Positions 3,943-29,312 are shown, counted from the first letter of the stretch. The stretch: 32,704 nucleotides of DNA from Gammaproteobacteria bacterium (GCA_049668345.1 JBATJF010000087.1:1-32704); one strand, 5' to 3'. Made by a program: numbers and translations. Notes: generated by a model not told the origin, from the sequence alone.

Positions 3943-4020
3943 TCACCGGCACGGACAGGCTGCGTCCGGTCTGCCAGTTTGCCGCTCCCGCGTCCCAATT
4001 TGCACAGACTTTCCTGTAAC

Positions 4021-4776
4021 ATGCGGGCCACCGCAACCCTGCTTCCGAAAGCCATGCGCCACAGCCAGCTGACAACAGAAACGCGCAGTGATGCACGCCA
4101 GTGCCTGCGGCGCTGTGTGCTGTTCTCGAAGCTGCCCGATGCGCAGTTCGAGCGCATCCTGGAGCATACCCGCGCAGTAGCGCTCGACGAGGGCGATGTG
4201 CTGTTCGAGCAGCACCAGCCGGCGAAGGAGGTCTTCCTGTTGCGCAGCGGACAGGTGAAACTCGCGCTGGTGTCTCCCGAGGGCCATGAGAAGGTCATCG
4301 ACCTGATCTCGCCCGGCGGTTCCTTTGCCGAGGCCATCATGTTTTCCGGCACCCGTGTCTACCCGGTTACGGCCACGGCACTGGTCAGCAGCAGCGTCTG
4401 GGGGGTCAACGCGGGGACCTACGAGGACATCCTGCGGGTATCGACCGATGCCTGTTTCGCGGTGCTGGCGCAGATGAGCCGGCGCCTGCACTGGCAGATC
4501 GCCGAGATCGACCGCCTGACCCTGCACAATGCCGCCTTCCGGGTGATCGCCTATCTGCTGGACCAGGTGCCCAGCACCGACCTGGACGCCAGCGTGATCC
4601 ACCTGGATACGCCCAAGCATGTCATTGCCTCGCGCCTGTCCATCACGCCGGAAACCCTGTCGCGTACCTTCGCCAGGCTGGGCCGGGACGGTTATCTGCA
4701 GATCGAGGACAACGCGGTACGCATACAGGACATCGAGAAACTGCGTACCTACATACGCAACGGCGGTGTCGTCTAG
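4021..4776 (+). CDS. Crp/Fnr-family transcription factor, DNR/NnrR-like (no FNR-type N-terminal Cys cluster)
   Basis: ORF 3979-4776. It has a cNMP-binding-like beta-roll (LFSKLPDAQFERILEHTRAVALDEGDVLFEQHQPAKEVFLLRSGQVKL). The C-terminal HTH is HVIASRLSITPETLSRTFARLGRDGYL, with the FNR-class E-x-x-S-R recognition motif. The start is uncertain (TTG 3979, ATG 4021 or ATG 4054). Confidence 0.85.
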   Translation: MRATATLLPKAMRHSQLTTETRSDARQCLRRCVLFSKLPDAQFERILEHTRAVALDEGDVLFEQHQPAKEVFLLRSGQVKLALVSPEGHEKVIDLISPGGSFAEAIMFSGTRVYPVTATALVSSSVWGVNAGTYEDILRVSTDACFAVLAQMSRRLHWQIAEIDRLTLHNAAFRVIAYLLDQVPSTDLDASVIHLDTPKHVIASRLSITPETLSRTFARLGRDGYLQIEDNAVRIQDIEKLRTYIRNGGVV

Positions 4777-4880: not shown

Positions 4881-5855
4881 TTATGAGGATGTCCGGCTTC
4901 TGGTGGGCGTCACCAGATGGTTGAGATTGACCAGTGACAGTAACAGCATTGCACCGATGCCGTTGTGAGCTGTCACCAGGAGCAGGGGCAGTTCGGCGAG
5001 TACTGCTGAAATACCCAATGCCGCCTGTAAAACCAGAAAGCCGAGTATGCTCACAGCCGTGTTACGCAGGCGGTCCTGTTTCCAGGCCCGGATGGCCAGC
5101 CATCCAAGGTACAGAAGCGTCAACATGGCGCCAAAGCGGTGTGCCATGTGTACGGTTCTCTGTATGCTGCCGGTAACGATCCTGCCCTGCTCATCCACGC
5201 CAAGCCTGTCGAACAGGTTGAATCCCTGCATGAGGTTGGTGAAAGATGCCCAGTCGCCGTTGCAGCCGGGCAGCACTGAGCAGGACGGTCCGGCAAAATC
5301 AGCACTGACCACTGCACCCAGGGCAATCTGTCCGGCCACGACCAGCAGGCCCAGCCGTGCCCAGGGTCTTAGTGTCGATGCGGCGTCGTCAGCGGCGTCT
5401 ATGGTTTCCACCGAACGCTGGCCAATCCACCACAGCAGGGCGAGCATCGTCATGCCGCCGAAAAGGTTACCGAACGTGACGGCAGGTATGTCCGGTGACG
5501 GCGTACTGTATCCCAGTACCGAGAGAAACACAGTCAGGGCAAGGACTGAAAGCGGTGCGAGAAGACCAACACCGGCCGGGCGACGTCCACGCAGGGCCAG
5601 GAGCGTGATAGCCAGAATAATCACGCCCAGCAGGCTGGCCGTGAACCGGTGAACCGCACCTGCCGTGGTGCGAGGTACCAGTCCATGATCCCGGGTCGCG
5701 GGCAGCTGTCCGAAACAGCCCGGCCATTCTTCGCAACCGAGGCCAATGCTTTCAAGACGCAGGTAGGCGCTCAACAGCACAGCCGCCAGTGTCAGTACCA
5801 GTGCCACAAACACAAGCAAGGTGAAAAGGCTGCCAGATTGTGTCCTGTCATTCAT
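4881..5855 (-). CDS. ctaA: Heme A synthase (COX15/CtaA family)
   Basis: 324-aa polytopic membrane protein. It carries the CtaA-type periplasmic Cys pair motif GLGCEEWPGCFG and a second pair (GPSCSVLPGC). Conserved His-containing helices are present (AVHRFTASL, HMAHRFGAM, TAHNGIGAM). Confidence 0.8.
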   Translation of the reverse strand: MNDRTQSGSLFTLLVFVALVLTLAAVLLSAYLRLESIGLGCEEWPGCFGQLPATRDHGLVPRTTAGAVHRFTASLLGVIILAITLLALRGRRPAGVGLLAPLSVLALTVFLSVLGYSTPSPDIPAVTFGNLFGGMTMLALLWWIGQRSVETIDAADDAASTLRPWARLGLLVVAGQIALGAVVSADFAGPSCSVLPGCNGDWASFTNLMQGFNLFDRLGVDEQGRIVTGSIQRTVHMAHRFGAMLTLLYLGWLAIRAWKQDRLRNTAVSILGFLVLQAALGISAVLAELPLLLVTAHNGIGAMLLLSLVNLNHLVTPTRSRTSS

Positions 5856-6054: not shown

Positions 6055-7428
6055 ATGCATGAAGAATACGTTTTAGACGTACCTGCTGGCAACCGTCGTC
6101 AGCTGGGCAAAGGCTGGCTGTGGCTGGGAATCATGGCGTTGCTGGGTTCGGGTCTGTTTTCCCTGCTGCTGGTGCTGTCACGTACACCCTACATCCAGGA
6201 CAGCATTCCATGGATTGACTTTTTCCATACGGCACTGGTTGTGCACGTGGACCTGTCGGTGCTGGTGTGGTTTCTGGCGTTTGGCGGCGTACTGTGGACC
6301 CTGAATTCCACCCCGCGTTTCATGTATCTCGGATGGGCAGCGCTGCTGCTGGCCGGACTGGGCGCCGCGCTCATGGTCGTGGCGCCGTTCCTCGGTCCGG
6401 GTAATCCGCTGATGAGCAACTATATCCCGGTATTGCAGACACCGCTCTTTACCGTGGCATTGCTGGGATTCGGCTTTGGAATAACCTTGCTGGTCCTGCG
6501 CGGCATGATCGCCAACCCGCTGGTTGGTTTGCGTATGGAAGGCGCGGGCGCATTGCGCTTTGGTTTGAATACCGCTGCCGTGTCGGCCGTTATGGCGGTG
6601 TTCGCCTTTACCTGGTCGTATCTGGCGATACCCGACACCATCACGGGTAACTACTATTTCGAGTTGCTGTTCTGGGGTGGCGGTCATATGCTGCAATTCA
6701 CCTACACCCTGCTTATGCTGGTGGCCTGGCTCTGGCTGGCATCCGCCTCCGGCGTACATCTGCCGCTGAGTCCGCGGGTGGTATTGGTGTTGTTTGTTTT
6801 CGGGCTAATGGCCGTGTTTATGGCGCCACTGATTTACTATGCCCATCCGGTTCTCTCGGCTGAACATATCAAGCTGTTTACCTGGCTCATGGCCTATGGT
6901 GGCAGTCTGGCGCCCGTGCCACTGGGTCTGGCGGTCTTTTACGGCCTGTTGCGCAGTGCCTCCGCATCCGCATTGCAGCTTCCCTTGCGCTCGGCCCTGT
7001 GGTGCTCGATGATCCTGTTCGGAATCGGCGGTGGTATCGGTTTTATGATCCAGGACAGCAATGTCACCATCCCCGCGCACTATCATGGTTCCATCGTCGG
7101 CGTCACACTGGCCTTCATGGGTTTGACATATCATCTCTTGCCACGCCTGGGATACGCCCGGCCGAACATGAGGTGGGCCGCCATACAGCCTTACGTGTAT
7201 GGCGGTGGTCAGCTGTTGCATGTTCTGGGGCTGGCGTGGTCGGGCGGCTACGGCGTGCAGCGGAAAGTGGCGGGTACGGAGCAGGCTCTTGACGGCCTGG
7301 AAAAGATTCTGGCGATGGGGCTGATGGGCTTTGGCGGGCTGGTTGCTATCATCGGCGGTCTTGTTTTCCTGGTGGTGGTGCTGGCGGCCATGACCAGGGG
7401 GCCACAGTCACAGCAGGGTGCGGCTTGA
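6055..7428 (+). CDS. Divergent heme-copper oxidase subunit-I-like membrane protein lacking the His-His CuB pair
   Basis: ORF 5821-7428. The likely start is ATG 6055, because the upstream 78 codons are Arg/Cys-rich and overlap the divergent ctaA promoter region. It is a ~12-TM protein with HCO-like motifs: FFHTALVVH (helix II), LFWGGGHMLQF (helix VI), TIPAHYHGSIVG (helix X H-x-H heme ligands). The helix VII equivalent reads YYAHPVLS instead of AHH. There is no HH dipeptide anywhere in the ORF. Confidence 0.75.
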   Translation: MHEEYVLDVPAGNRRQLGKGWLWLGIMALLGSGLFSLLLVLSRTPYIQDSIPWIDFFHTALVVHVDLSVLVWFLAFGGVLWTLNSTPRFMYLGWAALLLAGLGAALMVVAPFLGPGNPLMSNYIPVLQTPLFTVALLGFGFGITLLVLRGMIANPLVGLRMEGAGALRFGLNTAAVSAVMAVFAFTWSYLAIPDTITGNYYFELLFWGGGHMLQFTYTLLMLVAWLWLASASGVHLPLSPRVVLVLFVFGLMAVFMAPLIYYAHPVLSAEHIKLFTWLMAYGGSLAPVPLGLAVFYGLLRSASASALQLPLRSALWCSMILFGIGGGIGFMIQDSNVTIPAHYHGSIVGVTLAFMGLTYHLLPRLGYARPNMRWAAIQPYVYGGGQLLHVLGLAWSGGYGVQRKVAGTEQALDGLEKILAMGLMGFGGLVAIIGGLVFLVVVLAAMTRGPQSQQGAA

Positions 7429-7454
7429 TACGCCCGGGGATCAATGCAGCGTCA

Positions 7455-7820
7455 ATGAATCTGCCGTGCAGCCGACGGACAGGATTTGCCCTGCTCGCAC
7501 TGCCGCTGGTCTTCATACTGGCCGGAGTGCCACCGAGCGAAGCGGATCTCCCGGGCCCGCAACCATCACCAGCCCTGCACAGCTCACCAACGGTGACTGA
7601 AGCCGGCGCGAATATCGCCGGTGCTGTTGCGGGCCTGACTGCGCCTGCCGCGGGCGCTTCGGTAACGAAATTTCCCGCTCCGGTGGCGAAAGAAACGCCA
7701 GTCAATGACGAACGCGAGGATTTGACGGCGTTCTTTTTCATCGGTGCGGTAATTGACGTGCTGCTGGTGGCGGCCTTCCTGATCTGGGCCGTCGGACAGT
7801 GGCGCAAGGCGAATAAATAG
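7455..7820 (+). CDS. Hypothetical secreted, C-terminally membrane-anchored Pro/Ala-rich protein
   Basis: ORF 7425-7820; TTG 7425 overlaps the upstream stop as TTGA. ATG 7455 gives a signal-peptide-like N-terminus (MNLPCSRRTGFALLALPLVFILAGV). The C-terminal TM is FFFIGAVIDVLLVAAFLIWAV. Confidence 0.5.
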   Translation: MNLPCSRRTGFALLALPLVFILAGVPPSEADLPGPQPSPALHSSPTVTEAGANIAGAVAGLTAPAAGASVTKFPAPVAKETPVNDEREDLTAFFFIGAVIDVLLVAAFLIWAVGQWRKANK

Positions 7821-7833
7821 GAGCTTGAGACCG

Positions 7834-8469
7834 ATGTCTGAAACTACACCCAGGCCGTACGGAACACTGCTGATTTTCCTTTTCCTGTGCCTGCTGCTGG
7901 CAGCGGTTTACTACTGGATGCTGCCTGGCAAGTCGGTTCCGGATGAACTCCAGGGCGTGCTCCGCCCCGGGCCGACTCAATTGCAGGCGTTCGAGCTGAT
8001 CGATCAAAACCGGCAGCCCTTTGGCCTGGAACGCCTGAAAGGGAAGTGGAGTCTGGTTTTCTTCGGCTATACATCCTGCCCTGACATCTGTCCAACGACA
8101 CTCTCGACCCTGAACGGGGTGGTCAAGAAACTGCGAGCCGATCCGCAGGGGCTTGCCGGCATGCAGGTCGTATTCGTTACCGTGGATCCCCGGCGCGACA
8201 CAGCGGATGTCATAGACGGCTACCTGAAGTACTTCAATGAAGCCTTCCTGGGTGTCACCGGCGCGCAGCAGGATATCGACAGCCTGGCCCGGCAGTTCGG
8301 CGCCGGCTACGTAACCGAGCCGGAAACCGTCGCTGGTCAATACCTGGTCAGCCACACCAGTTCGATTTTCCTGGTCGATCCGCGCGGACGCCTGCTTGCC
8401 GCATTTTCCCCGCCGCATGACCCCGGCACCATTGCCGACCAGTTTCGGCAGATTCGTGCGCTTTTCTGA
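7834..8469 (+). CDS. SCO1/SenC-family copper chaperone (thioredoxin fold)
   Basis: AGGAG at 7819-7823 precedes ATG 7834. There is an N-terminal TM. The SCO motifs are WSLVFFGYTSCPDICPTT (C-x3-C), VVFVTVDPRRD and YLVSHTSSIFLVDPRGRL (Cu-ligand His). Confidence 0.88.
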   Translation: MSETTPRPYGTLLIFLFLCLLLAAVYYWMLPGKSVPDELQGVLRPGPTQLQAFELIDQNRQPFGLERLKGKWSLVFFGYTSCPDICPTTLSTLNGVVKKLRADPQGLAGMQVVFVTVDPRRDTADVIDGYLKYFNEAFLGVTGAQQDIDSLARQFGAGYVTEPETVAGQYLVSHTSSIFLVDPRGRLLAAFSPPHDPGTIADQFRQIRALF

Positions 8470-8879
8470 TGCATTTGTCCGCCGGCAGGTTTATCCCCGC
8501 TGTTCTCGTGGCTCTGGTTCTCCTGGCCGGTTGCGGCCAGGAGATCAAGTACACACCGGCTGAACTGGGTGCATTCATAGACGAGTTGAAGGCAAATGGC
8601 GTTGACGGTTCGTTGCTGATACGGGCGCCTCTCAACGAGGACATGGAGTACATCGCGGAATATACAATAGCAAGGTATGCAAGCACGCGTGTCGTATCCT
8701 TCTTCAAATTCAAGGATGCTGAAAAGGCTGAGGCGGGCCTGCGGGAGGCCTTGAAGAATGACAAGTTGTCCGGACAGGCAAGCAATGCGTCATTTGTCAT
8801 GGCGGCGACATTTTACCCCCCGGATGACGAGGCGGTAGCGAAGATAAAAGCGCGGTTTCTCGCGCACAAATTTGACTGA
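8469..8879 (+). CDS. Hypothetical lipoprotein
   Basis: The start overlaps the upstream stop (TGATG). It has a lipobox (VLLAGC|G) after a signal peptide. No recognisable catalytic motif. Confidence 0.6.
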   Translation: MHLSAGRFIPAVLVALVLLAGCGQEIKYTPAELGAFIDELKANGVDGSLLIRAPLNEDMEYIAEYTIARYASTRVVSFFKFKDAEKAEAGLREALKNDKLSGQASNASFVMAATFYPPDDEAVAKIKARFLAHKFD

Positions 8880-9640
8880 TGAAAAAGACCCGCGCTCTGC
8901 CTGTGCTGCTAGTCCTGTGCATTGCAGTTGCCGGTGTCGTATACCTGGTGACGCCGCAGCGCGATGCAGCGCAGGAGTGGGAATCGCGTAAACCCCGTTT
9001 CCAGCAGGCGGCCGTGCATGCCGAGCCTCTGGTGAGGGCCATCACCGCGTACGTGTCTGCGTTCGGCCATCCGCCATCGGCACTCGCCGACCTTGTTCCA
9101 GGCTTTATTCAGGAGCTGCCCGCCACGGGGCTGCAGGAATGCAGCAGGTTCGAATACCGGTCTCTCGTGCACAAACAGGGGTCGATCGTGTGGTATGACC
9201 TGGGTTCAAGGCAGGGCGAGCCCTATTCCGGGGCGAGCCATTACAGCGATGGTGATCCGGGTCATGCCATCCTGGTGTTCGTACTGGATGCGAAGGGGCA
9301 AATCACCAGTGCCCTGATCGACCGGATACCGAAAGGCCGCGATCCGCTGGATTTTGATCCGCAGCGCTGGAAGGAAGGTGAGAACCGCATCGAGATGGCG
9401 CTGGCGCTGGCTGATACCTACAGACTGTATGGCATGCCCAGAGACGTGTTCGAGCGTCTGCTGGGGGCGCCTGACGGCAGTCGGTCCGTGCACGGCACGC
9501 CCTGGGAACTGCGTATCAATTGCCCGACCGGTCTGCTCAACCACGATAGCTTTGTTTACTGGCCCAGCGGGGAGTATCCGCAGCATCTGTATGGCGGTTT
9601 TACCGAGTCCGTTGGCAGATGGGTCTATGTCCACAGCTGA
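8879..9640 (+). CDS. Hypothetical N-terminally anchored (signal-anchor) protein
   Basis: The start overlaps the upstream stop (TGATG). The N-terminus is MKKTRALPVLLVLCIAVAGVVYLV. The composition is protein-like and no motif was recognised. Confidence 0.55.
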   Translation: MKKTRALPVLLVLCIAVAGVVYLVTPQRDAAQEWESRKPRFQQAAVHAEPLVRAITAYVSAFGHPPSALADLVPGFIQELPATGLQECSRFEYRSLVHKQGSIVWYDLGSRQGEPYSGASHYSDGDPGHAILVFVLDAKGQITSALIDRIPKGRDPLDFDPQRWKEGENRIEMALALADTYRLYGMPRDVFERLLGAPDGSRSVHGTPWELRINCPTGLLNHDSFVYWPSGEYPQHLYGGFTESVGRWVYVHS

Positions 9641-9768: not shown

Positions 9769-10221
9769 ATGTTCGGTTTCAAGAGTTCTTCTGCCAGGGA
9801 TAGCTCGCATTGCCTGCTGAAGGAGGTGGGCATCGCCGAGATCAACAAACAGCACCTGCGCCTGGCGAGTTATGCCGTGGATTTCAGCCTGATCGTGGAA
9901 GAGTTGTCCGGCAGGGAAGTCACCAACCAGGACTGGCGTCGTATCGACGCGCTGTTCAACAAGATCATGCGCTACGTCGAGACGCATTTCTCGGAGGAAG
10001 AGGCCTTGATGCGCGAATACGGCTACCCGGACTATGCCGCGCACAAGAAGCTCCATGACAAATTTTCCGCGGAGATGATAAAACTGCAGTCGGACATCAA
10101 TAACCGGAATATCAAGTTCAAGAAGAAAATGAGCAGCCTGCTCTGGGACTGGCTGTACCACCACATCAATGAAGTCGATTACCAGTACCGGGAATTCTTC
10201 CAGAGCAAGGGACTCAGCTGA
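9769..10221 (+). CDS. Hemerythrin-like di-iron domain protein (bacteriohemerythrin)
   Basis: GGAGG at 9757-9761 sits 7 nt before ATG 9769. The hemerythrin ligand pattern is present: EINKQH, ETHFSEEE, AAHKKLHDKF, WLYHHINEVD. Confidence 0.8.
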   Translation: MFGFKSSSARDSSHCLLKEVGIAEINKQHLRLASYAVDFSLIVEELSGREVTNQDWRRIDALFNKIMRYVETHFSEEEALMREYGYPDYAAHKKLHDKFSAEMIKLQSDINNRNIKFKKKMSSLLWDWLYHHINEVDYQYREFFQSKGLS

Positions 10222-10229
10222 ACTGTCGT

Positions 10230-11267
10230 TTATTTCCTGCCGGCGGCCAGGCTTTCGCGCAAAGCGTCCAGCGATTCAACCGGCCGGGAACTGCCTTCCG
10301 ATTCATAAACACCATCCTGGAACGATGCCGTGAGCGGCGTGTTTTCCGGTTCCGCGTTCATGGCAAAATAAAGAATGCCGCTGTTGCCATCGGTATCGTT
10401 GAAACGGATTTCGGCGCATGGTGCGGAGGACGCTTGCCCACCGCCCCCGGGTCGCTTGCCGCAGGCGGTTGGTGCGTCCGGCCATATCACCATGCTGCCG
10501 GGAGGCAACGCTGACTCAAGCCAGTCCACCAGGCTGACGTCACGCATGCCCTTGCCCGGTGACGCAACCGGAAGTGACCGGACGGTATCCGGTACCGGTT
10601 TCCGGGCATCAGTATCGAGTCCCGCCGTATCCACATGCCACACGGCGCCATTATTCCCGGTTTGAACACGCAGCCGTTCGACACCCTTGAAGGTCTTTGA
10701 CCTGACTGTGAAGCTGACCTGGCCCCGGCCGGTTATGCTGACCTGTTCATAGACTGGCGCGCGGTCACCCTCGAAATCAAGGTGGCGGCAGTCCACCGGG
10801 CCGTTGGGCGCACAGGAATCCGGCTTCTCCACCGGGTCGATCATCGATTCCGGCAAATGGCCGGGGTCCCAGCTGGCGAAATGACCGCAGGCATCGAAGC
10901 TGATATTGAAGGCATGTGTTGTTGCGATCAGGGTATGGTCGTCCGGCACTTCGTACCTGTCCTGCTCACCCAGGGCGACTGTCCTTGCACTGTCACTGTC
11001 CCGGCCGCCCGCTGCCCACAGCATCCGCCACCCGGCATCCCGGGGGTCGTCTGAATGTGAGTCGGCGGTGTGTTGCGACCGGCACATCACGACGGCATAT
11101 TCACCCAGATAATTGAAAGGAATATTGCGGAAATAGCGCACGACCTTGAGACTGAATTGCGGTCCGTCATAGAACACATGCTCATCCAGCCGTCGATTGG
11201 GCTCGCCGCAGGCGAGCAGCAGGGCAACAAGCATCATTACACCGGCATACAGGACTGCTCTTTTCAT
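10230..11267 (-). CDS. Hypothetical lipoprotein
   Basis: ORF 10230-11531. ATG 11267 overlaps the stop of the SirB-like gene (ATGA). It gives MKRAVLYAGVMMLVALLLAC|G, a signal peptide plus lipobox. The longer N-terminal extension overlaps the SirB-like gene out of frame. Confidence 0.6.
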   Translation of the reverse strand: MKRAVLYAGVMMLVALLLACGEPNRRLDEHVFYDGPQFSLKVVRYFRNIPFNYLGEYAVVMCRSQHTADSHSDDPRDAGWRMLWAAGGRDSDSARTVALGEQDRYEVPDDHTLIATTHAFNISFDACGHFASWDPGHLPESMIDPVEKPDSCAPNGPVDCRHLDFEGDRAPVYEQVSITGRGQVSFTVRSKTFKGVERLRVQTGNNGAVWHVDTAGLDTDARKPVPDTVRSLPVASPGKGMRDVSLVDWLESALPPGSMVIWPDAPTACGKRPGGGGQASSAPCAEIRFNDTDGNSGILYFAMNAEPENTPLTASFQDGVYESEGSSRPVESLDALRESLAAGRK

Positions 11268-11647
11268 GACAGCACCAGCGGGTTCTTCGTCAGCGCCACG
11301 GCGACGATATACATGAAGCAGAGCTGTGCGGCGATCCAGCTGCCTACGCGGATTCGCCTTGTTTTGCCGTAGGTCAGGGCCAGCATGCCAAGTCCGATAT
11401 AGAAAAACAGGAGCACGACCTTGGTCGTTAGCCAGGCGTGCACAAAGGGATACTGCCTGATGGTGAAGCAGAGAACGATTGCGGATACGAGCAGAACCGT
11501 GTCGATCACCGGGGGCAGGCGCCGGGTCCACTTGCGCTGCAACAGGTCCGGGTCAATGATCATCCATATGCCGCGGATGAAGAACAGCAGGAAGGTGATG
11601 ATCACGCAAGCGACATGAATATATTTTGCTATCACCGGATCAGTCAC
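11264..11647 (-). CDS. SirB-like small integral membrane protein (4 TM)
   Basis: 127 aa. MTDPVIAKYIHVACVIITFLLFFIRGIWMI... resembles the SirB/YchQ family N-terminus (KxxHv.cv.ls..lF..Rg.wm). It has four hydrophobic helices. Confidence 0.6.
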   Translation of the reverse strand: MTDPVIAKYIHVACVIITFLLFFIRGIWMIIDPDLLQRKWTRRLPPVIDTVLLVSAIVLCFTIRQYPFVHAWLTTKVVLLFFYIGLGMLALTYGKTRRIRVGSWIAAQLCFMYIVAVALTKNPLVLS

Positions 11648-12013: not shown

Positions 12014-12517
12014 CTAGCGGCTGAAGAAGCTGCCGGTCTCGGAATTGAAATTGATGAACAGCAGCTGGGCCGGTTCCAGGGTCACGGTTTCCTCGTCGGT
12101 ATGCGTGGGGCCCTTCACGTGCACGTCGTCGTTCATTTCCACGCCCAGCCGGTGTTCGCCGACGGGCACCTTGGCACTCAGGTAGACATCCACCCCGAGG
12201 TCGTTGTACAGGCCGGGCGGGTTGAAGACCTTCCCCGCAATTTGCTTGCCGTCCAGCAGCAAACTGACAGTGACAGGGGAACGTTCACGCGGGCAGTCCA
12301 TGGGCGCGCGCATGTTGGGCGGCAATCTGGCCAGTTCTTCCTGGGACAGGGTGTGGCACGGCTCGATGCGTGCACCGGCATGGGAATAGGCCACCGTGAC
12401 GAGCGCCTGGTCAGGTTTCAGGTGCGTGTAGGCGGGCGCGGCCGAGAAATACCACACCAGCAGCATGAAGATGCTGTAGTTCAGGGCCTGCAGCAGATAG
12501 CGCAGCGCCTCAGGCAT
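12014..12517 (-). CDS. Hypothetical membrane-anchored protein, last gene of the HCO operon
   Basis: ORF 12014-12748. ATG 12517 overlaps the upstream gene's stop by 8 nt. It reads MPEALRYLLQALNYSIFMLLVWYFSAAPAY (TM), followed by a ~130-aa beta-rich soluble part. The longer N-terminal extension is Ala/Arg-rich and overlaps the upstream CDS. Confidence 0.55.
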   Translation of the reverse strand: MPEALRYLLQALNYSIFMLLVWYFSAAPAYTHLKPDQALVTVAYSHAGARIEPCHTLSQEELARLPPNMRAPMDCPRERSPVTVSLLLDGKQIAGKVFNPPGLYNDLGVDVYLSAKVPVGEHRLGVEMNDDVHVKGPTHTDEETVTLEPAQLLFINFNSETGSFFSR

Positions 12518-14060
12518 TGCGCGCTTCCCGGGGGTGCGGATCGTCCAGTCCGTGCGTGGCGATCTGGCGCTGGAAGTCGGCAAGCTCGCGGCGCAGCCTG
12601 GCGCCGTCGGTGACGGCGCCCTGGAATATCCTGATGCGTTCGCGACTGGCGCGTTGCCGCAGCACCGGCTTGCGCAGACCCTCGAAGCGCTGATCCATCC
12701 AGGCATTGCCCAGGCGGTAGAAGCAGTCGCCGCCGCGGCAGCCTGCAATCATGACGCCACCTGCACCGTGCCGTTGCGCGTATTCCACGAGGGTCAGTGG
12801 CAGCATGCCCGTGCAGAACAGGCTCAGTACCGCGACGTTGTCGGCCTTCAGCTCGCTGATATCGGCGGCGTTGTCGCAGCCGAAAATCATGATGCCGTTA
12901 TCGTCCTTGAGTTCTGCCAGGGCGGACCGGGTCCGTGTCCGGATTTCGTCAATCGGGAACTGGGGCATATCGATGCCTGTTTCCAGCGGCGTTGCATTCC
13001 TGAACGGGTTGGATGAGTAGCAGGAGGCGACACAGATACCGCAGGCGGCACACTGGGCGGGATTGACAATGACTTCGTTTTTCCAGCGTGCCCCGTCGGT
13101 GCGTGCCTGTACCGAGATGGCGTCGAAGGGGCAGTCCTCGGCGCACTGGCCGCAGCCGTTGCATTGATCGAGATGAACCTCGGCCGCGGGGCCGGTTTTT
13201 CTGGGCGGCAGCCAGGGCAGGATGATCAGCAGCAGGGTGACGCTCGTGGTCAGTATCCAGACCTGGTTTGCCGACCACGTGTCGAGCAGGGGGTAGACGT
13301 TGAGATAGAACCAGTCGAGTCGCAGTACCGCGGGTACCCTGGAAAGGTCTGCGGGCGCATGGCTGGTCGCCGGCATCAGCAATGACAGTGCGAGCAGCGC
13401 CAGGAAACTGCCCACGGCCAGGCCACGGGGAGCACTGATCTCGACATGGGAGAGCCGCTTGACGTGCAGCCAGATGACACCGATCAGCATGATCGGCTGT
13501 CCCAGCAGGTGCAGGAAACCCATCAGGGTGAACATCCGGTCGGTGAGCTGACCCGCCAGGAAATCACGGGCCATGGAACCGGTCATCACCGGCACCGCAT
13601 CCATGAGCAGGGAGGAGAGCACCGCGACGTACAGGCCCAGTTCATCCCACACCAGCCAGTAACCGGTGATGCCCAGGGTGATAACGACCCACAGGGTCGG
13701 TATGCCGGTAACCCAGGACCACCAGCGGAAGCCATGGTAACGGCCGAGGGCGAATTCGCGAAACATGTGCAGCAGGATGGTGACGACTGCGGCATCCGAG
13801 GCATAGCGGTGCAGGCTGCGCATGATGCCACCCGCGTACCACTGGTGGTGGGTTATTTTCTCTACCGAGCTGTATGCGCCGGCGATGCTGGTGTCGAAGA
13901 AGATGAACAGGTAGAGGCCGCTGACCAGCACGACCCAGAAGAAGAAAAAGGTCAGTGTTCCGAGATGATAGAGTGGATTCCAGGCCGTTCCAAACGACAG
14001 GTTGAACCATTCCTCGAGCAGGAGGTAACTGCGCTTGACGGGATTAACGCGTTTGTTCAC
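12510..14060 (-). CDS. Fusion protein: cytochrome b(6)-like di-heme membrane domain, two [4Fe-4S] ferredoxin motifs and an MvhD/FlpD-like domain
   Basis: ORF 12510-14213. The first 50 codons are Arg-rich and overlap the senC-like gene, so GTG 14060 is the proposed start (uncertain).
- Cytochrome b helix B: IMRSLHRYASDAAVVTILLHMFREF.
- Cytochrome b helix D: FLHLLGQPIMLIGVIWLHV.
- A GYWLVWDE segment matches the cytochrome b GY.LPW region.
- Fe-S motifs: CNGCGQCAEDCP and CAACGICVASC.
- MvhD-like tail: IMIFGCDNAA...LFCTGML...GAGGVMIAGCRGGDCFYRLGN. Confidence 0.8.
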   Translation of the reverse strand: MNKRVNPVKRSYLLLEEWFNLSFGTAWNPLYHLGTLTFFFFWVVLVSGLYLFIFFDTSIAGAYSSVEKITHHQWYAGGIMRSLHRYASDAAVVTILLHMFREFALGRYHGFRWWSWVTGIPTLWVVITLGITGYWLVWDELGLYVAVLSSLLMDAVPVMTGSMARDFLAGQLTDRMFTLMGFLHLLGQPIMLIGVIWLHVKRLSHVEISAPRGLAVGSFLALLALSLLMPATSHAPADLSRVPAVLRLDWFYLNVYPLLDTWSANQVWILTTSVTLLLIILPWLPPRKTGPAAEVHLDQCNGCGQCAEDCPFDAISVQARTDGARWKNEVIVNPAQCAACGICVASCYSSNPFRNATPLETGIDMPQFPIDEIRTRTRSALAELKDDNGIMIFGCDNAADISELKADNVAVLSLFCTGMLPLTLVEYAQRHGAGGVMIAGCRGGDCFYRLGNAWMDQRFEGLRKPVLRQRASRERIRIFQGAVTDGARLRRELADFQRQIATHGLDDPHPREARNA

Positions 14061-14175
14061 GGATAGTCGTCTCTGGGTTTCACCGGTGTGCGAAGCAGGC
14101 CGCACGTGCAGGGTCTTGCAGGTGATTGTACCGCCAGAGCCTAATCGATGACGGGAAAGTCGTCCTTGATATGTC

Positions 14176-15027
14176 TCAAGAGTGAGCCGAGCGCCGGCCG
14201 TGCCTGACTTCACGCGCCAGGAGCACGATCCCGATCAGTATGATGGACCCGCCGATCACCATGCCGATGAACAGCGAGTAGTCGAAATAGTAGCCGTCCC
14301 GTGCAGGATCGTAGGTGGTGCAGAAGAAGTTGACCTTGTCGATCAGTTCGGACAGCAGGCCCTGGTTCGGCTTGGGTCGTCCGAGCACGAGCTCCTTGAG
14401 TGGCTCGACCAGTATCGGCGTCTCGAACACCTCGCCGTAAACCTGCCGGTAGACATGTCCCTCGGCGTCGATTACCGTGGCCTGCGTGATGTGGTCGAAG
14501 CCATTGGGTGATGCGTAGAACTCGAATCCAAGGTCCTTGCTCAGGGCCTTGACGGTATCCGGGCTGGCGCTGAGCAGGTACCACCCCCGGTCATCGATTC
14601 CCTGTGTCCGCGCGAAATGGATCATCGCCTGCGGGTTATCGTTGTAGGCATCGAAGCCCAGCACAGCGACGTTGAAGCTGTCTTCACCCAGGGCCTTGCG
14701 GGCCTTGTCGACCACCTTGGCGAGATGGCGGGTGGTCATGGGACAGATCTGGTAGCAGCTGGTATAGATCAGGCTCAGCACCAGCGGCTTGCCGCGCAGG
14801 TCGTCCAGGGTCAGGGCGCGGCTCTCGTGGTCGGTCAGGCGGTGGTTGCCCAGTACGCGGCCGATGGCGTCCTGGCTGCGCTGCAGGGCTTCCTTGTAGC
14901 GGAACGCCTGGACCGGGTCCTGCGGCTGTATAGCGTCGACCGGGCCGGGTTCTGCGGCGGCAGCCGGAACAAGCGCCGAGCAGAGTAATGCAAGGAGCAG
15001 GGCAAGAGGTCTGGATGAGTACCGCAT
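14176..15027 (-). CDS. SCO1/SenC-family copper chaperone with a C-terminal extension and TM anchor
   Basis: ORF 14176-15051; ATG 15027 gives the signal peptide MRYSSRPLALLLALLCSALVPAAAA. SCO motifs are PLVLSLIYTSCYQICP (C-x3-C) and FDHITQATVIDAEGHV. There is an extra ~70-aa tail with the TM FIGMVIGGSIILIGIVLLA. Confidence 0.85.
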   Translation of the reverse strand: MRYSSRPLALLLALLCSALVPAAAAEPGPVDAIQPQDPVQAFRYKEALQRSQDAIGRVLGNHRLTDHESRALTLDDLRGKPLVLSLIYTSCYQICPMTTRHLAKVVDKARKALGEDSFNVAVLGFDAYNDNPQAMIHFARTQGIDDRGWYLLSASPDTVKALSKDLGFEFYASPNGFDHITQATVIDAEGHVYRQVYGEVFETPILVEPLKELVLGRPKPNQGLLSELIDKVNFFCTTYDPARDGYYFDYSLFIGMVIGGSIILIGIVLLAREVRHGRRSAHS

Positions 15028-15065
15028 GATTGTGTGACTCGGGGCGGACAACGCCTGCCACGGTA

Positions 15066-15977
15066 TCAGCCAATCAACGTGGCGTCGAGTACGGCGAATA
15101 CCAGCAACACGATCAACTGTACCAGGGAGGCAAAAAAGGCGCGCATGCCGTTGCCGGGCGAGGTGTCCTTCACCAGCAGCAGGCTGCGATAGATGAAATA
15201 GCCGCCCCCGATAAGGGCGCCGGCCAGGTACAGCCAGCCGAGACCGAAGAAAAACGGCAGGACGGATACGCCGGTCAGCAGCAGCGTGTTGGCCAGCACC
15301 ACCCGGGCGGCCGCCGTGTTACCCACCTGCACCGGCAGCATGGGCACGCCGACGGCCTCGTAATCCTTGTGCCGCGCGATGGCCAGGCTCCAGAAGTGGG
15401 GCGGCGTCCACAGGAACAGGACAACGGCCAGGATGAGCGGTACCGCGCCCAGGTGGGGGTCGACCACGGCCGCGCCGGCCAGCACGGCAAAACTGCCCGA
15501 GGCGCCGCCGATCACGATATTCATTGATGTGCGGCGTTTCAGCCACACGGTATAGACGATGGCATAGAAGAAGGCGCCGAGAAAGATATACAGGGCGGCC
15601 ATGCCGTTAAGCAGCCAGCCGGCGGTGCCCACGCCGGCCAGCAGCATGGCACCGATCAGCAGCAGCCACCAGCGGCTGTGCACAAAGGCGCCGGTCACGA
15701 AGGGCCGGTCGACGGTGCGGCGCATGCGTGCGTCGATATCGGTTTCGTAATACTGGTTAAAGGCGCCCGCACTGCCGGCGGCCAGTAATACGGTGATCCC
15801 CAGTACCAGCACCTGCCAGGTGGCTACCGACTGCCCGGGGGTCACGATCAGGGTCACCACGGAGGTGAGGGCCATCACGACGCCGATGCGGAACTTGAAA
15901 AGATTCGACAGCTGATGCAACGTCGCCGACAAATCAAACGGTTGTCCGATGGCGCCCTCTATGAGTTGTCTCTGCAT
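15066..15977 (-). CDS. ctaB: Protoheme IX farnesyltransferase (heme O synthase, CtaB/CyoE)
   Basis: 303-aa UbiA-family polytopic protein. It carries NQYYETDIDARMRRTVDRP (the CtaB N..D..iD..M.RT..RP motif) and a second Asp-rich region. Confidence 0.88.
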   Translation of the reverse strand: MQRQLIEGAIGQPFDLSATLHQLSNLFKFRIGVVMALTSVVTLIVTPGQSVATWQVLVLGITVLLAAGSAGAFNQYYETDIDARMRRTVDRPFVTGAFVHSRWWLLLIGAMLLAGVGTAGWLLNGMAALYIFLGAFFYAIVYTVWLKRRTSMNIVIGGASGSFAVLAGAAVVDPHLGAVPLILAVVLFLWTPPHFWSLAIARHKDYEAVGVPMLPVQVGNTAAARVVLANTLLLTGVSVLPFFFGLGWLYLAGALIGGGYFIYRSLLLVKDTSPGNGMRAFFASLVQLIVLLVFAVLDATLIG

Positions 15978-16000
15978 GTTCGCGTACCCGGATGTTTAAT

Positions 16001-16030
16001 GCGGGGCGGACATGGTGCCATCCGCCCCGC
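16001..16030 (-). other. Intra-operon GC-rich hairpin between HCO subunit I and ctaB (possible attenuator or mRNA-processing element)
   Basis: GCGGGGCGGA (16001-16010) pairs perfectly with TCCGCCCCGC (16021-16030) across a 10-nt loop. On the minus strand it is followed by ATTAAACATCC, so there is no clean U-tract. Confidence 0.4.
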
Positions 16031-16050
16031 CTGGGCCCGGGTCCGGCTGC

Positions 16051-17775
16051 CTAGCTGAGCGGCCAGACCGAGGACAGATACTTCCAGTTGATGAAGTAAT
16101 AGACGACGAAGGAAACCAGCAGCAGCATCGCCAGGGCAAAGGTGCCCGGGGCTTCAAAACCGGCCGAACCGTGCTCCTCAACCGGCTTCGCCATGGGCAG
16201 GATTTCCGGTACCGCCGAGTAGGTGCCCGACGACAGCGGGAAACCGAAGCTCTGCAGCAGACCGGCGGATTCATCCAGCTTCTTGCCGAACACAAGCGAT
16301 CCCACGGTGATGAGCAGAAAGGCGCCGCCGGCGACCACGGCCAGGACGGCGCCGATACCGGCGATGCCCATCATGGTGTAGGCCATGCCCGAGTACTCAA
16401 AGCTCAGCGCCGCTCCGGTGAAGTCCATATCCCAGTGACGTCGCGAGACCCCCAGCGTGCCCGCACCCAGCATGAACAGGATCAGGATCGTCATGCCGCC
16501 GCCGAACAGATAGGGCTGCCATTTGGCCAGCGTGGGCAGGATCATCTTGCGCCGGAACAGTACCGGAATAAGGTAGAAGGTCAGTCCCATGAAGGTCAGG
16601 GTGGTACCGACCGCCACGGTGGCGTGGAAGTGGGCGGGGACGTAGATCGTGTTGTGGATAATCAGGTTGATCTGCTCGGTTCCCATCACCACACCCGTGA
16701 TACCGCCGATAAATCCGAAAATGAGGATAGAGAGGAAGGTGGAGGAGAACGCCGGATTACCCCACGGTGCCTTGCGCAGCCATTCGAACATGCCGCGGGT
16801 ATAGCCCTTCTTGCGCAGGGCAATTTCCATGGAGCCGGGCACGGTCAGTCCATGGATCATGCTGGCCAGGACCGCCAGGTACATGGCGTAGCTGGTGTTG
16901 AATATCTTCCATTCAGCGCTGATGCCCGGGTCCACCAGGATGTGGTGGGCGCTGGCCAGCTGCAGGAACAAGATGTAGAGCAGGAAGGCGAAACGGCTCA
17001 CTTTTTCCGACATGGGGCGGGCGCCGAGCGTGAGTCCGGCCACCAGGTACCAGACCGATACATGCGCGGCGACGTTGATCTGCTGGGACGAATGGCCCAT
17101 CCCCCACCAGATGACGCGGTACATTTCCGCATCGATGTGCCCGATGTAGCCGATCGACCACAGGAAGGTCGGGATCAGGATGATGGCGCCGCTGGCAATG
17201 GTGAATACCGCGATAATGGCGGCGGTCATTGCCCCGAAGGTGACCAGCGGAATGGATCCCTCATAGGTGTGCTCGTCCTTCGCGACGACCAGTGTGCCGA
17301 AGAAGACGAAGCAGCCGATCAGGGCGCCCACTGCAAACAGGATCAGGCCCAGGTAAAAATGCGGTGCCGCCTGCATGGGAACATAGGACGTCATCATGAC
17401 ACTGGAATTGCCCTGGAAGACGGCGACGTTGGTCGTGACCGCGCCGATCAGCATCAGGGCGAACCCCAGCCAGGCCCAGCGCGGGGCGGCCAGCCGGCAC
17501 CGCAGCAGGGTCGATGACGCGAAATAGAGAATCGCGATTTCGAAGAAGATGATCCAGAAGATCAGCGCATCGATACCGTGGGCGGTCAGGAACATGTAGA
17601 ACTGGTCAGCAGGCAGCAGGTGCACCGCGGGCCAGCGTGTCAGTGCCACGCCGAGCGCCAGCAGGCCGGCCACCAGCAGGGCGACGGCGGCGGCCACCGC
17701 GTTGGCCTTCATCAGGCTTTCCGCGTTTCTGTCGAAATACAGGCCCGAGTCGGGACAGAGTCTAAAGTTTGCCAT
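16051..17775 (-). CDS. Heme-copper oxidase superfamily subunit I, B-family-like, with the cross-link Tyr replaced by Gln (candidate NO reductase catalytic subunit)
   Basis: 574 aa; AAGGAG sits 9 nt upstream of ATG 17775. Ligands are H66 (LTAHGIDA), H228 (WWGMGHSSQQ), H277-H278 (ASAHHILV) and H382/H384 (VPAHFHATV). The spacing nearly matches Thermus ba3 numbering. The residue at H228+4 is Gln232, not Tyr. Confidence 0.85.
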   Translation of the reverse strand: MANFRLCPDSGLYFDRNAESLMKANAVAAAVALLVAGLLALGVALTRWPAVHLLPADQFYMFLTAHGIDALIFWIIFFEIAILYFASSTLLRCRLAAPRWAWLGFALMLIGAVTTNVAVFQGNSSVMMTSYVPMQAAPHFYLGLILFAVGALIGCFVFFGTLVVAKDEHTYEGSIPLVTFGAMTAAIIAVFTIASGAIILIPTFLWSIGYIGHIDAEMYRVIWWGMGHSSQQINVAAHVSVWYLVAGLTLGARPMSEKVSRFAFLLYILFLQLASAHHILVDPGISAEWKIFNTSYAMYLAVLASMIHGLTVPGSMEIALRKKGYTRGMFEWLRKAPWGNPAFSSTFLSILIFGFIGGITGVVMGTEQINLIIHNTIYVPAHFHATVAVGTTLTFMGLTFYLIPVLFRRKMILPTLAKWQPYLFGGGMTILILFMLGAGTLGVSRRHWDMDFTGAALSFEYSGMAYTMMGIAGIGAVLAVVAGGAFLLITVGSLVFGKKLDESAGLLQSFGFPLSSGTYSAVPEILPMAKPVEEHGSAGFEAPGTFALAMLLLVSFVVYYFINWKYLSSVWPLS

Positions 17776-17781
17776 GTCTCA

Positions 17782-18324
17782 TCACTCCTTAACGTAGATT
17801 CTGCCGAGCATGGTATGGTGGCCAATGCCGCAGAATTCGTTACAGACCACGCCATACTCACCGGCGACATCGGGTGTAATGTTCAGCACCATTTCATAGC
17901 CAGGAACCACCTGCATATTGATGTTGACGGGCTGCAGCGAGAAGCCGTGCTGCCAGTCCATGGATGACAGGTGCAGGCGGTAGGTCTTGTCCTTTTCCAG
18001 TTCCAGGATCGGCCACCATTGCCACAAACGCCCCAGCATGTAGATGTCGCTGCCAGCCGGCGGATGCACAACCGGGATCTTCTGTTCGGTTTCGGTACGG
18101 ACGGTATACTGGTCGATCATGGCCTGGACCTTGGCGCCAAACGCAGCGGGCGTGGTTTGATAGGCCTCGGTAGACAGGTTCTGTTTCCCGTAGACGTGCC
18201 AGAACGGCATCATGAAAAACAGGATCAGGCACCATATCAGCGCGATGGCGATCCAGACGATCTCCTGGCGTCCAACGGGCACCTTCCACCAGATGCGATC
18301 GGCGGGCGGTAAATAGGAAGTCAT
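17782..18324 (-). CDS. HCO subunit II, single TM plus cupredoxin domain with a complete CuA site
   Basis: 180 aa; AGGAGG lies upstream of ATG 18324. The TM is IVWIAIALIWCLILFFMMPFW. The CuA signature H-X34-C-X-E-X-C-X3-H-X2-M is present exactly (DWQH...[34]...CNEFCGIGHHTM). Confidence 0.88.
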   Translation of the reverse strand: MTSYLPPADRIWWKVPVGRQEIVWIAIALIWCLILFFMMPFWHVYGKQNLSTEAYQTTPAAFGAKVQAMIDQYTVRTETEQKIPVVHPPAGSDIYMLGRLWQWWPILELEKDKTYRLHLSSMDWQHGFSLQPVNINMQVVPGYEMVLNITPDVAGEYGVVCNEFCGIGHHTMLGRIYVKE

Positions 18325-18607: not shown

Positions 18608-18621
18608 TTGATATATGTCAA
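18608..18621. promoter_or_regulatory. FNR/DNR-type box TTGATATATGTCAA upstream of the HCO operon
   Basis: 9/10 match to TTGAT-N4-ATCAA. Its centre is 98 nt upstream of ATG 18516. A GATGAT -10-like hexamer (18585-18580, minus strand) lies about 32 nt downstream of the box centre, which fits a class II (-41.5) arrangement. Confidence 0.65.
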
Positions 18622-21900: not shown

Positions 21901-21932
21901 AAATTATCCGGCAGACGTATGGGTAATAGATC

Positions 21933-22030
21933 GGTGCGCAAAGCGCACCCTACATGAACTGCGCAGGTGTGTTACTGGTGCGCAGAGCGCACCCTACATC
22001 CCGATTTAATTTCGCAGGGTGCGCTCTGCG
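21933..22030. repeat. Cluster of three REP-like palindromic elements (two direct, one inverted) between nirJ and nirN
   Basis: GGTGCGCAAAGCGCACCCTACAT (21933-21955) and GGTGCGCAGAGCGCACCCTACAT (21977-21999) are direct copies. AGGGTGCGCTCTGCG (22016-22030) is an inverted partial copy. Each unit is itself a hairpin (GGTGCGC/GCGCACC). Copies 2 and 3 can pair over 15 bp. Confidence 0.8.
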
Positions 22031-22041
22031 GGCCGTCATGT

Positions 22042-23259: not shown

Positions 23260-23260
23260 A

Positions 23261-23770: not shown

Positions 23771-23773
23771 GCA

Positions 23774-25206: not shown

Positions 25207-25208
25207 GG

Positions 25209-27461: not shown

Positions 27462-27488
27462 GGTTGTCAGGCTCCTCGGGATGAGAGG

Positions 27489-27525
27489 CCGGGCATGGAA
27501 AACCGTAACGGTCTTCCATGCCCGG
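27489..27525 (-). other. Strong hairpin between nirS and nirE (partial terminator or mRNA stabiliser candidate)
   Basis: CCGGGCATGGAA (27489-27500) pairs with TTCCATGCCCGG (27514-27525). The loop contains a further ACCGT/ACGGT pairing. On the minus strand it is followed by CCTCTCATCCC (no U-tract) and then GAGGAG and the nirE ATG. Confidence 0.5.
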
Positions 27526-27533
27526 CACCATGG

Positions 27534-29312
<1,779 letters not shown>

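Follow-up and report, generated by a model that had tools for sequence, protein, structure and literature searches.

A conserved homologue of haem-copper oxidase subunit I that appears to lack the copper site and recurs beside haem-handling genes

We analysed a stretch of 32,704 nucleotides from a Gammaproteobacteria bacterium (GCA_049668345.1, JBATJF010000087.1:1-32704; hereafter the window, with positions counted from its first letter), which holds, at 6055..7428 on the plus strand, a gene for a 457-residue protein with 12 transmembrane helices that resembles subunit I of the haem-copper oxidases (HCOs). This protein, here called HCOL, is a genuine and very divergent homologue of HCO subunit I, with a resemblance far beyond chance. 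To judge from its residues, it is a paralogue that would retain both haem sites and lack the copper site, and the theme common to its genomic contexts is the presence of enzymes that make or move haem. Our preferred reading, held tentatively and at somewhat less than an even chance, is that HCOL is a copper-less mimic of subunit I that binds haem and assists in the maturation of haem cofactors, in this window for a nitric oxide (NO) reductase-like enzyme of the sNOR type.

The open reading frame lies at 6055-7428, and its ATG start agrees with the N-termini of the closest homologues, which open with MH(E/D)EY. Pfam COX1 (PF00115) matches HCOL over nearly its full length at 43.2 bits (cut-off 34.8), and is the only Pfam family to do so; Surf1, Cox11/CtaG, Sco, CtaM and CcsA/CcmF are among those that do not match, and NCBIfam holds no matching model. 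HCOL thus falls outside the known families of oxidase and cytochrome c assembly factors, as PF00115 is its only match. By BLASTP it aligns over its full length with a 574-residue subunit I encoded elsewhere in the window (28% identity, E 9e-25). Searches of the PDB with the single sequence and with a 21-sequence profile returned no match even at E 10. An AlphaFold2 model built on the 21-sequence alignment is a 12-helix bundle (pLDDT 78.7, pTM 0.85), for which Foldseek gave Thermus ba3 subunit I as the best match (query-normalised TM score 0.70-0.77), followed by subunit I of aa3, bo3, cNOR and cbb3. Sequence homology and the 12-helix fold therefore both place HCOL within the HCO superfamily, as the sequence-only reading of the window had held.

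Because the PDB sequence searches were empty, putative ligands were mapped by alignment and not onto a solved structure. We used hhalign against 36 sNOR-type subunit I sequences (100% probability, E 1.7e-47) and against five A-type subunit I sequences (98% probability, E 6.6e-13), together with pairwise BLASTP, and the two profile alignments and BLASTP gave one and the same map. Conservation was scored in 121 full-length HCOL representatives that are only 31-50% identical to the window protein, whose numbering is used throughout. In these alignments, H64 stands opposite the helix-II ligand of the low-spin haem, and H342 and H344 opposite the helix-X ligands of the high-spin and low-spin haems, respectively; the three are 97-99% conserved, and HCOL thus keeps the haem ligands of helices II and X that had been read from the sequence. 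The pairings that had been made by eye agree with the alignments as well (H64/H66, GH211xxQ/GH228xxQ and H342xH344/H382xH384). R403-K404 lies opposite the Arg-Arg pair at the haem propionates, H211 opposite the helix-VI CuB His, and Y123 opposite the Tyr of the W-x-x-Y-P-P segment, which in ba3 is near the active site and gas channel. In the A-type profile alignment R43 falls opposite the helix-I Arg, which in A-type enzymes forms a hydrogen bond to the haem a formyl group. Residues conserved at 95-100% are W21, R43, H64, V65, W72, N122, Y123, P125, W207, G210, H211, Q214, M279, G325, H342, Y343, H344, G345, Q378, G385, R403 and K404, with N122, Y123, P125, W207 and Q214 at 97-100%; E203 is 91% conserved. 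The resulting core (R43, H64, N122-Y123-x-P125, E203, W207, H211, Q214, H342-Y343-H344 and R403-K404) belongs to a conserved residue set that is identical across all the genomic context types described below. On this pattern, HCOL presumably binds haem.

The second-metal site has fared differently. In all three alignments the canonical helix-VII His-His pair lies opposite Ile260-Tyr261, and Tyr is found at position 261 in only 54% of members. The sequence-only reading had paired AHPVLS of HCOL with AHHILV of the 574-residue protein and had seen His-Pro in place of His-His; this pairing was wrong, as His264-Pro265 aligns with an Asp-Pro of the oxidase and position 264 has Tyr as its consensus (Tyr in 45, Phe in 13 and His in 12 of 121). 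His271 is invariant in the close HCOL clade and is His in just 38 of 121 members family-wide; 28 of the 121 diverse proteins have no His at all within residues 250-285, and a helix-VII His is conserved in none of the 50%-identity clades. Because neither His264 nor His271 is conserved across the family, the site would have one conserved His and not two. The proposal of a degenerate CuB site was thus sound as to the degeneracy and the retained helix-VI His, while its two-His form gives way to H211 alone, and the predicted loss of the copper site is more radical than had been proposed. The alignments reveal neither a conventional three-His site nor a conserved replacement ligand in any clade.

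The cross-linked Tyr of O2-reducing HCOs lies at +4 from the helix-VI His, or on helix VII in the C family. In HCOL, the +4 position, which holds this Tyr in A and B oxidases and Glu in cNOR, is Phe215, as had been noticed earlier (F in 75% and Y in 9% of the 121 members). Because the cross-link Tyr is missing, HCOL is predicted not to be an O2 reductase of the A, B or C family, in line with its earlier description as a very divergent protein with some other function. It likewise departs from cNOR, qNOR and nNOR, which have three His and a Glu at FeB, in missing two His and in having Phe at +4. Taken from the alignments, the picture is of a protein that has two haem sites and a single distal His with a Gln next to it, and no second-metal site.

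HCOL is far from the orphan that it had been taken for. A word-indexed search found 7,467 relatives at E <= 0.001 among 8,000 candidates scored, the 120 best of which are 65-90% identical to HCOL, and related genera encode proteins of 56-90% identity. A profile searched against 1.84 billion cluster representatives matched 1,676 clusters at E <= 0.001, 1,299 at 1e-10 and 753 at 1e-30, nearly all of them 430-480 residues long; as our figure for the deep family we take at least 753 clusters at 50% identity. Because the profile search stops at about 1,700 clusters, HCOL appears to be a family of its own, which suggests a separation from the mainstream oxidases. Pattern scans confirmed at least 593 HCOL loci in GTDB species genomes and 576 in metagenomes, and the survey of distribution and synteny that had been called for thus yields a large, deep family with recurrent neighbourhoods. 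Carriers include Thiohalobacter, Thiogranum, Acidiferrobacterales, Sulfuricaulis, Halieaceae and many Burkholderiales (in culture: Noviherbaspirillum sp. ST 5-3, Quisquiliibacterium transsilvanicum DSM 29781 and Pelomicrobium sp. G1), the cultured Seongchinamella sediminis, as well as Methylomirabilis, Magnetococcales, Rickettsiales-like Alphaproteobacteria and one Bacteroidota metagenome-assembled genome (MAG), so that the spread covers Alpha-, Beta- and Gammaproteobacteria, Magnetococcales, NC10 and Bacteroidota MAGs. The ratio of nonsynonymous to synonymous substitution rates (dN/dS) against four close relatives was 0.09-0.12, indicating strong purifying selection; HCOL is therefore not a pseudogene. 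Public databases annotate family members as "cytochrome c oxidase subunit I", "cbb3-type cytochrome c oxidase subunit I" or "hypothetical protein", and searches of the open-access full-text literature found no description of the family. HCOL thus represents an apparently undescribed variant within the HCO superfamily, real and conserved.

We then scored the neighbours at 175 HCOL loci by tblastn, phmmer and Pfam and found that five arrangements recur. In Beta- and Gammaproteobacteria, in Methylomirabilis and in the Bacteroidota MAG the prevailing pattern is an sNOR-type operon in the order COX2(CuA)-COX1-(CtaB)-SCO-CytbFeS-(hemerythrin)-U167-HCOL, often with the haem A synthase gene ctaA before or after it; CytbFeS is a fusion of cytochrome b, two [4Fe-4S] clusters and an FlpD-MvhD domain, and U167 is a single-helix membrane protein. 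In the clade of the window (Thiohalobacter, Thiogranum and relatives), CtaA is divergent from an operon of HCOL, a 131-residue protein, SCO, a lipoprotein, a 253-residue protein and hemerythrin, and the remaining sNOR-type genes up to U167 lie nearby on the opposite strand (12014-18324 in the window). Bare divergent pairs of CtaA and HCOL in housekeeping surroundings make up a third arrangement (L089-L091, L093-L095, L097, L104 and L153); these are the two largest distant HCOL clusters, assigned by homologue search to Alphaproteobacteria/Rickettsiales MAGs, and no oxidase genes were found within 7-9 kb of the pairs.

The fourth arrangement places HCOL beside A-type aa3 operons, either between CtaA and CtaB or adjoining CtaB. 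In one such locus (L131) CtaA is divergent from HCOL, which faces SCO-CtaB-COX1-COX2-SCO-COX3; in another (L154) SCO-CtaA is divergent from HCOL, which faces CtaB; and in a third (L163) COX3-SCO-COX2-COX1-CtaB-CtaA-HCOL run on one strand. Cox11 and SURF1 are also present at three aa3-type loci (L115, L116 and L164). In the fifth, HCOL lies within System II cytochrome c maturation operons and is often fused to a TPR domain: ResB-CcsA-HCOL-thioredoxin-like-TPR protein (L175), ResB-CcsA-HCOL::TPR (L173, from Magnetococcales, adjoining multihaem cytochromes) and CcsA-HCOL::TPR (L174 and L088). All four CcsA-clade loci that were examined show either the ResB-CcsA-HCOL-thioredoxin-like-TPR order or the CcsA-HCOL::TPR fusion, and the CcsA-like proteins beside HCOL carry the WGRYWxWDPxE haem-handling motif. 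In the Magnetococcales MAG (L173, 1-8957), ResB-CcsA-HCOL::TPR follows genes for multihaem cytochromes c (Cytochrome_C7 and an 817-residue protein with paired CXXCH motifs), which suggests a cytochrome c maturation system dedicated to multihaem cytochromes.

Fusions tie HCOL to the same partners. HCOL is joined to CtaB in one protein (P0258; 39% identity to the window CtaB, E 3e-60), to an N-terminal cytochrome b in another that occurs on two contigs (P0121; 36% identity to the N-terminal part of CytbFeS, E 9e-59), and to a C-terminal membrane-anchored TPR domain (HCOL::TM-TPR) in at least seven 50%-identity clusters. CytbFeS lay no more than 1.5 kb from HCOL in 46 of 63 well-flanked loci; this automated figure is rough, as stop-to-stop reading frames and overlap resolution drop some true genes and the sampling favours sNOR-type loci. 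CtaA is the family's most widely conserved neighbour, and its divergent pairing with HCOL recurs in distant clades; near distant members in haem A/O synthase or cytochrome c maturation contexts we found no N-oxide genes. What the contexts have in common is thus not NO, O2 or copper but CtaA, CtaB and CcsBA, enzymes by which haem is made or moved. The haem-copper enzyme that is usually nearby is likely to be the client of HCOL.

In the window, this enzyme is encoded on the minus strand by an operon whose nearest gene is 4.6 kb from HCOL and whose subunit I gene is 8.6 kb away. Its subunit I is the 574-residue protein (16051..17775), a relative of the B family (E 1e-40 to ba3 in the PDB) with an intact three-His site (H228, H277 and H278), a GHSSQQ helix-VI motif and no active-site Tyr at +4; the H277-H278 pair is intact in 36 of 36 sNOR-type subunit I sequences. 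The operon further encodes subunit II (17782..18324; Pfam COX2), in whose translation the CuA motif CNEFCGIGHHTM is intact, the haem O synthase CtaB of the UbiA family (15066..15977; Pfam 162.8 bits), a second SCO1/SenC protein of 291 residues (14176..15051), the 567-residue CytbFeS with its cytochrome b domain at the N-terminus (12510..14213), and the 167-residue U167 (12014..12517), recognised by synteny with tblastn and phmmer and without a Pfam match. With three His and no Tyr, B-family affinity and a CuA subunit II, the 574-residue protein has the marks of an sNOR. We call it sNOR-type because it fits the published description of that enzyme (PMC11214002) and because the same cluster occurs in MAGs of Methylomirabilis, a genus with a reported sNOR (PMC6094997), so that the label rests on description and co-occurrence. 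HCOL itself lacks the three-His site and a subunit II of its own.

By the alignments, this sNOR-type subunit I is the closest relative of HCOL, which is nearer to sNOR-type proteins (E 1.7e-47, about 26% consensus identity) than to A-type ones (E 6.6e-13, 16%) and shares with them the helix-VI G-H-x-x-Q motif. Scored with an sNOR hidden Markov model, all HCOLs reach about 50-70 bits, alike in every context type. The suggestion that HCOL lacks an oxidase partner does not hold, as it is usually the last gene of an sNOR-type operon, with U167 directly upstream of it in most genomes. The related statement that no cupredoxin or cytochrome c subunit is encoded with it is true of the operon in the window, while in most genomes the operon includes a CuA subunit. 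CytbFeS is kept in nearly all sNOR-type clusters, where it is sometimes duplicated, and its domains suggest an electron link across the membrane from cytoplasmic Fe-S centres to membrane haems. A Cys-containing segment (MDCPRERSP) is conserved in U167, which might act as a metallochaperone or form a small subunit. Just upstream of the sNOR-type operon, at 18608-18621, stands an FNR/DNR-type box that is almost perfect (TTGATATATGTCAA).

Since the haem sites appear to be kept and the copper site lost, and since its neighbours handle haem, we favour a role for HCOL in cofactor maturation; such a role would likely be non-catalytic and concerned with haem handling. The main evidence for it is the genomic context across clades. 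HCOL would take haem O or A from CtaB, encoded in the sNOR operon, and from the adjacent CtaA, and would hold it, possibly redox-poised, for insertion into the sNOR-type subunit I, with the co-transcribed SCO serving the copper sites of that enzyme. The HCOL module of other lineages may instead act for aa3 oxidases or for CcsBA, the cytochrome c synthetase of System II. Homology, fold, ligand pattern, purifying selection, synteny and fusions are shown, whereas haem binding, the type of haem and the mechanism (holding and handing over, or redox poising) are inferred. No factor resembling subunit I figures in a 2022 review of bacterial oxidase assembly, according to which it is unexplained how haem A travels from CtaA into subunit I (PMC9145763). 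Among the roles that had been suggested from the sequence, a cofactor-assembly scaffold fits the contexts best, while NO chemistry or sensing is favoured only by the denitrification setting of the window.

Several considerations weigh against a maturation role. The haems of canonical HCOs are buried, which is an awkward geometry for a transfer protein, and the case for haem binding by HCOL consists of conserved ligands. SURF1 is present together with HCOL at loci next to aa3 operons, and HCOL is therefore not simply a Surf1 substitute. The sNOR clusters of ammonia-oxidising bacteria and of Bacillus (norSY-senC and cbaCBA-senC-cbaD) are listed in the literature without an HCOL gene, so that sNOR does not need HCOL everywhere. 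In sNOR-type operons HCOL has the redox protein CytbFeS as its nearest neighbour, and the cytochrome b::HCOL fusion exists, observations that electron transfer would fit at least equally well. The retained helix-VI His, Gln214, T276 and S318, the last two common to sNOR subunit I, could be a sign of residual catalysis. Finally, our sampling of contexts is biased towards relatives of the queries used.

A broader version of this idea, which is possible but which we regard as doubtful, is that HCOL founds an unrecognised class of haem-trafficking proteins that receive haem O or A (haem b in the CcsBA-linked clade) and then deliver it to a client or keep it reduced for one. If so, HCOL would fill an acknowledged gap, namely how two haem A groups reach subunit I, and the linked hemerythrin and CytbFeS could allow haem A to be supplied at very low O2 in denitrifiers.

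Electron supply offers a serious alternative to haem trafficking, though on balance we consider it unlikely. Under this explanation, a di-haem HCOL fed by CytbFeS would supply electrons to haem-processing enzymes without itself holding or transferring haem; what makes it serious is the position of CytbFeS, the nearest neighbour of HCOL in sNOR-type operons, and its fusion to HCOL in one lineage. CtaA needs electrons for O2 activation and CcsBA needs ferrous haem, and the dependence of mitochondrial Cox15 on a ferredoxin and its reductase provides a precedent for Fe-S electron supply to a haem A synthase. The proximity of CytbFeS at 46 of 63 well-flanked loci, the cytochrome b::HCOL fusion on two contigs, the thioredoxin-fold gene that lies 3' of HCOL both in the window (SCO) and in the System II operon, and the conservation of both haem sites and of Tyr343 between two His ligands would all be accounted for. 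CytbFeS is, however, absent from the CtaA-pair, aa3 and CcsA contexts; HCO haems lie side by side at one membrane depth and would not form a transmembrane wire; and neither a donor nor an acceptor site was identified on HCOL. Decidedly unlikely, in our estimate, is the main idea of the sequence-only reading, in which HCOL would bind or turn over NO or O2 at the high-spin haem, with His211 and Gln214 on the distal side and no second metal; NO scavenging, NO sensing and new N-oxide chemistry are possible roles of this kind. The window is a denitrification island (nirS, nirF, nirDLGH, nirJ, nirE and a NirI/NosR-like gene), the HCOL operon includes a hemerythrin gene, HCOL ends sNOR-type operons, Y123 aligns with the Tyr of W-x-x-Y-P-P, and T276 and S318 are shared with sNOR subunit I. 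These points must be set against the loss of two of three metal ligands in every clade with no conserved replacement, the housekeeping, aa3 or cytochrome c maturation contexts of the largest distant clades, with no N-oxide genes, and the want of a dedicated electron-input subunit; moreover, the sNOR and nir genes have an FNR/DNR-type box and the interval between ctaA and HCOL has none.

HCOL might also have no cofactor role and act as a permanent structural or regulatory pseudo-subunit, a scaffold for a heterodimer or supercomplex with a canonical subunit I. Most loci do place HCOL and a canonical subunit I in a common operon, and HCOL has the same fold as sNOR subunit I and scores closer to it (1.7e-47) than to the A-type (6.6e-13), but lone pairs of CtaA and HCOL and System II operons offer no subunit I partner, and a scaffold would not need strictly conserved haem ligands and a propionate pair, which makes this very improbable. 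A duplicate of sNOR subunit I that is decaying or is not transcribed would explain the lost copper ligands and a Pfam score of just 43 bits, yet dN/dS is about 0.1, the frame is intact in hundreds of species and the family is deep with invariant residues of its own; the conservation data already refute it, and we give it practically no weight.

Comparison with characterised systems helps to place the family. HCOL shares with sNOR-type subunit I (NorS/NorY, norSY clusters) the 12-helix fold, the haem His of helices II and X, the helix-VI W-x-x-G-H-x-x-Q, the Arg pair at the haem propionates, many other invariant residues and usually the operon; it differs in lacking both helix-VII His and a dedicated CuA subunit, and in its size, with about 115 residues fewer, loops that are shorter and a C-terminus that is not extended. 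The sNOR subunit I matches ba3 in the PDB at 1e-40, whereas HCOL matches no PDB oxidase by sequence. Thermus thermophilus ba3 subunit I (PDB 1EHK/1XME), its best structural match (TM 0.70-0.77), is 17-18% identical to it and is an O2-reducing enzyme with a complete His3-Tyr CuB site. Loss of an active-site His is shared with gNOR, which also occurs in Methylomirabilis and is the only HCO family described with such a replacement (Murali et al. 2024; PMC11214002), but in gNOR a single His becomes Asp and a cupredoxin-fold second subunit is present, whereas in HCOL two His are lost with neither replacement nor subunit. A 65%-identical Methylomirabilis homologue had led us to consider HCOL as gNOR itself; compared with the published description of gNOR, HCOL has no conserved Asp at the helix-VII positions and no cupredoxin partner, and the identification was rejected on ligand pattern, partner subunit and locus. 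In M. oxyfera, gNOR is Damo_1118-1119 and sNOR Damo_0801-0802 (PMC6094997). The Methylomirabilis MAGs carry HCOL in the sNOR-type cluster.

Functional analogues of the proposed role are found among proteins of other folds. The analogy that we propose is with the haem a insertion factors Surf1/Shy1 and CbaX: like them, HCOL would be a membrane protein that holds haem A transiently on its way from CtaA to subunit I and is encoded near oxidase and ctaA/ctaB genes; their folds are unrelated to HCOL, and SURF1 co-occurs with it at aa3 loci. For the CcsA-linked clade, the b-haem of CcmF and the TPR protein CcmI of System I offer a parallel, as a membrane haem module with a periplasmic TPR domain beside a PF01578 protein, although HCOL has no homology to them and no WWD motif. 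We know of no requirement of System II for an HCOL-like component.

HCO subunit I is among the best-studied of membrane proteins, and its three-His site has long been treated as universal. The replacement of one His in gNOR was reported in 2024 as the first exception (PMC11214002). In the HCOL family two of the three His appear to be gone, and the family is nonetheless highly conserved across phyla. Because its members are annotated as oxidase subunits, metagenomic surveys overcount terminal oxidases and NO reductases. The recurrent linkage to haem A/O synthase and cytochrome c synthetase makes HCOL a testable candidate for haem A delivery to subunit I, and in denitrifying sulfur oxidisers it is a conserved extra component of the sNOR-type NO reductase clusters.

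The immediate surroundings of HCOL in the window largely match their earlier description. Haem A synthase CtaA (4881..5855, minus strand; Pfam COX15-CtaA, 142.5 bits) is indeed divergently transcribed, and 199 bp separate it from HCOL. Two Cys pairs (GCEEWPGC and CSVLPGC) lie in loops predicted for this protein, a pattern that marks haem A synthases of type 1 (the Bacillus type) as opposed to the Cox15-like type that is usual in proteobacteria. Downstream of HCOL, on the plus strand, follow a 131-residue Pro/Ala-rich protein that opens with a signal-like segment and ends in a transmembrane anchor (7425..7820; its start is ambiguous between TTG at 7425 and ATG at 7455), and the SCO1/SenC copper chaperone that had been named (7825..8469; Pfam 141.4 bits), a canonical protein in whose translation both the CPDIC motif and the conserved His are present. 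Next come a 136-residue lipoprotein of unassigned function, found in the window clade only (8469..8879; lipobox LLAGC), and a 253-residue signal-anchored protein, also unassigned (8879..9640); the lipobox and the TGATG joins that had been reported are present, the latter at 8467-8471 between SCO and the lipoprotein and at 8877-8881 between the lipoprotein and the 253-residue protein.

Pfam and NCBIfam gave no family match for the 131-, 136-, 167- or 253-residue proteins. A homologue search with the 253-residue protein found 118 homologues, all from the window clade, and its model, which is confident (pLDDT 84), has no fold match in the PDB (best E 0.09, TM below 0.2). The 131-, 136- and 253-residue proteins are confined to this clade and are thus lineage-specific additions that do not define the HCOL family. 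A bacteriohemerythrin gene (9769..10221, plus strand; NCBIfam 90 bits) is probably the last of the operon. Hemerythrin accompanies HCOL and sNOR-type genes in several lineages (L001, L004 and L006); elsewhere it is encoded between CytbFeS and U167, upstream of HCOL, and in the window downstream of it. Its role in the HCOL/sNOR-type system might be to provide or detect O2 or NO. A lipoprotein-like reading frame of about 345-433 residues at 10230-11531 (minus strand), without a Pfam match, adjoins hemerythrin throughout the window clade.

Further along the window, 20320-29273 on the minus strand forms a cd1 nitrite reductase island. It comprises two NirS/NirN-like proteins with cytochrome c and d1 domains (20320-21900 and 27534-29273), a NirJ-like radical-SAM protein (22042-23259), NirDLGH-like siroheme decarboxylase genes (23261-25206), a NirF-like gene (25209-26372) and a NirE-like methylase (26682-27461), all on that strand, and a NirI/NosR-like gene (29347-30975) adjoins nirS. 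Two perfect FNR/DNR-type boxes (TTGAT-N4-ATCAA; 29337-29350 and 31009-31022) flank the NirI/NosR-like gene. In the whole window, 14 FNR/DNR-type sites with at most two mismatches were observed against 7.5 expected, and the ctaA-HCOL intergenic region has no such box within two mismatches. Between the sNOR-type operon and nirS/nirN lies a 317-residue reading frame (19313-20266, plus strand) without a Pfam match. On the other side of HCOL, a CRP/FNR-family regulator (3979-4776, plus strand), for which FtrB is the best NCBIfam model at a score below its cut-off, adjoins ctaA, and a CRP-family gene recurs near the HCOL cluster at other loci (L004, L019, L058 and L117).

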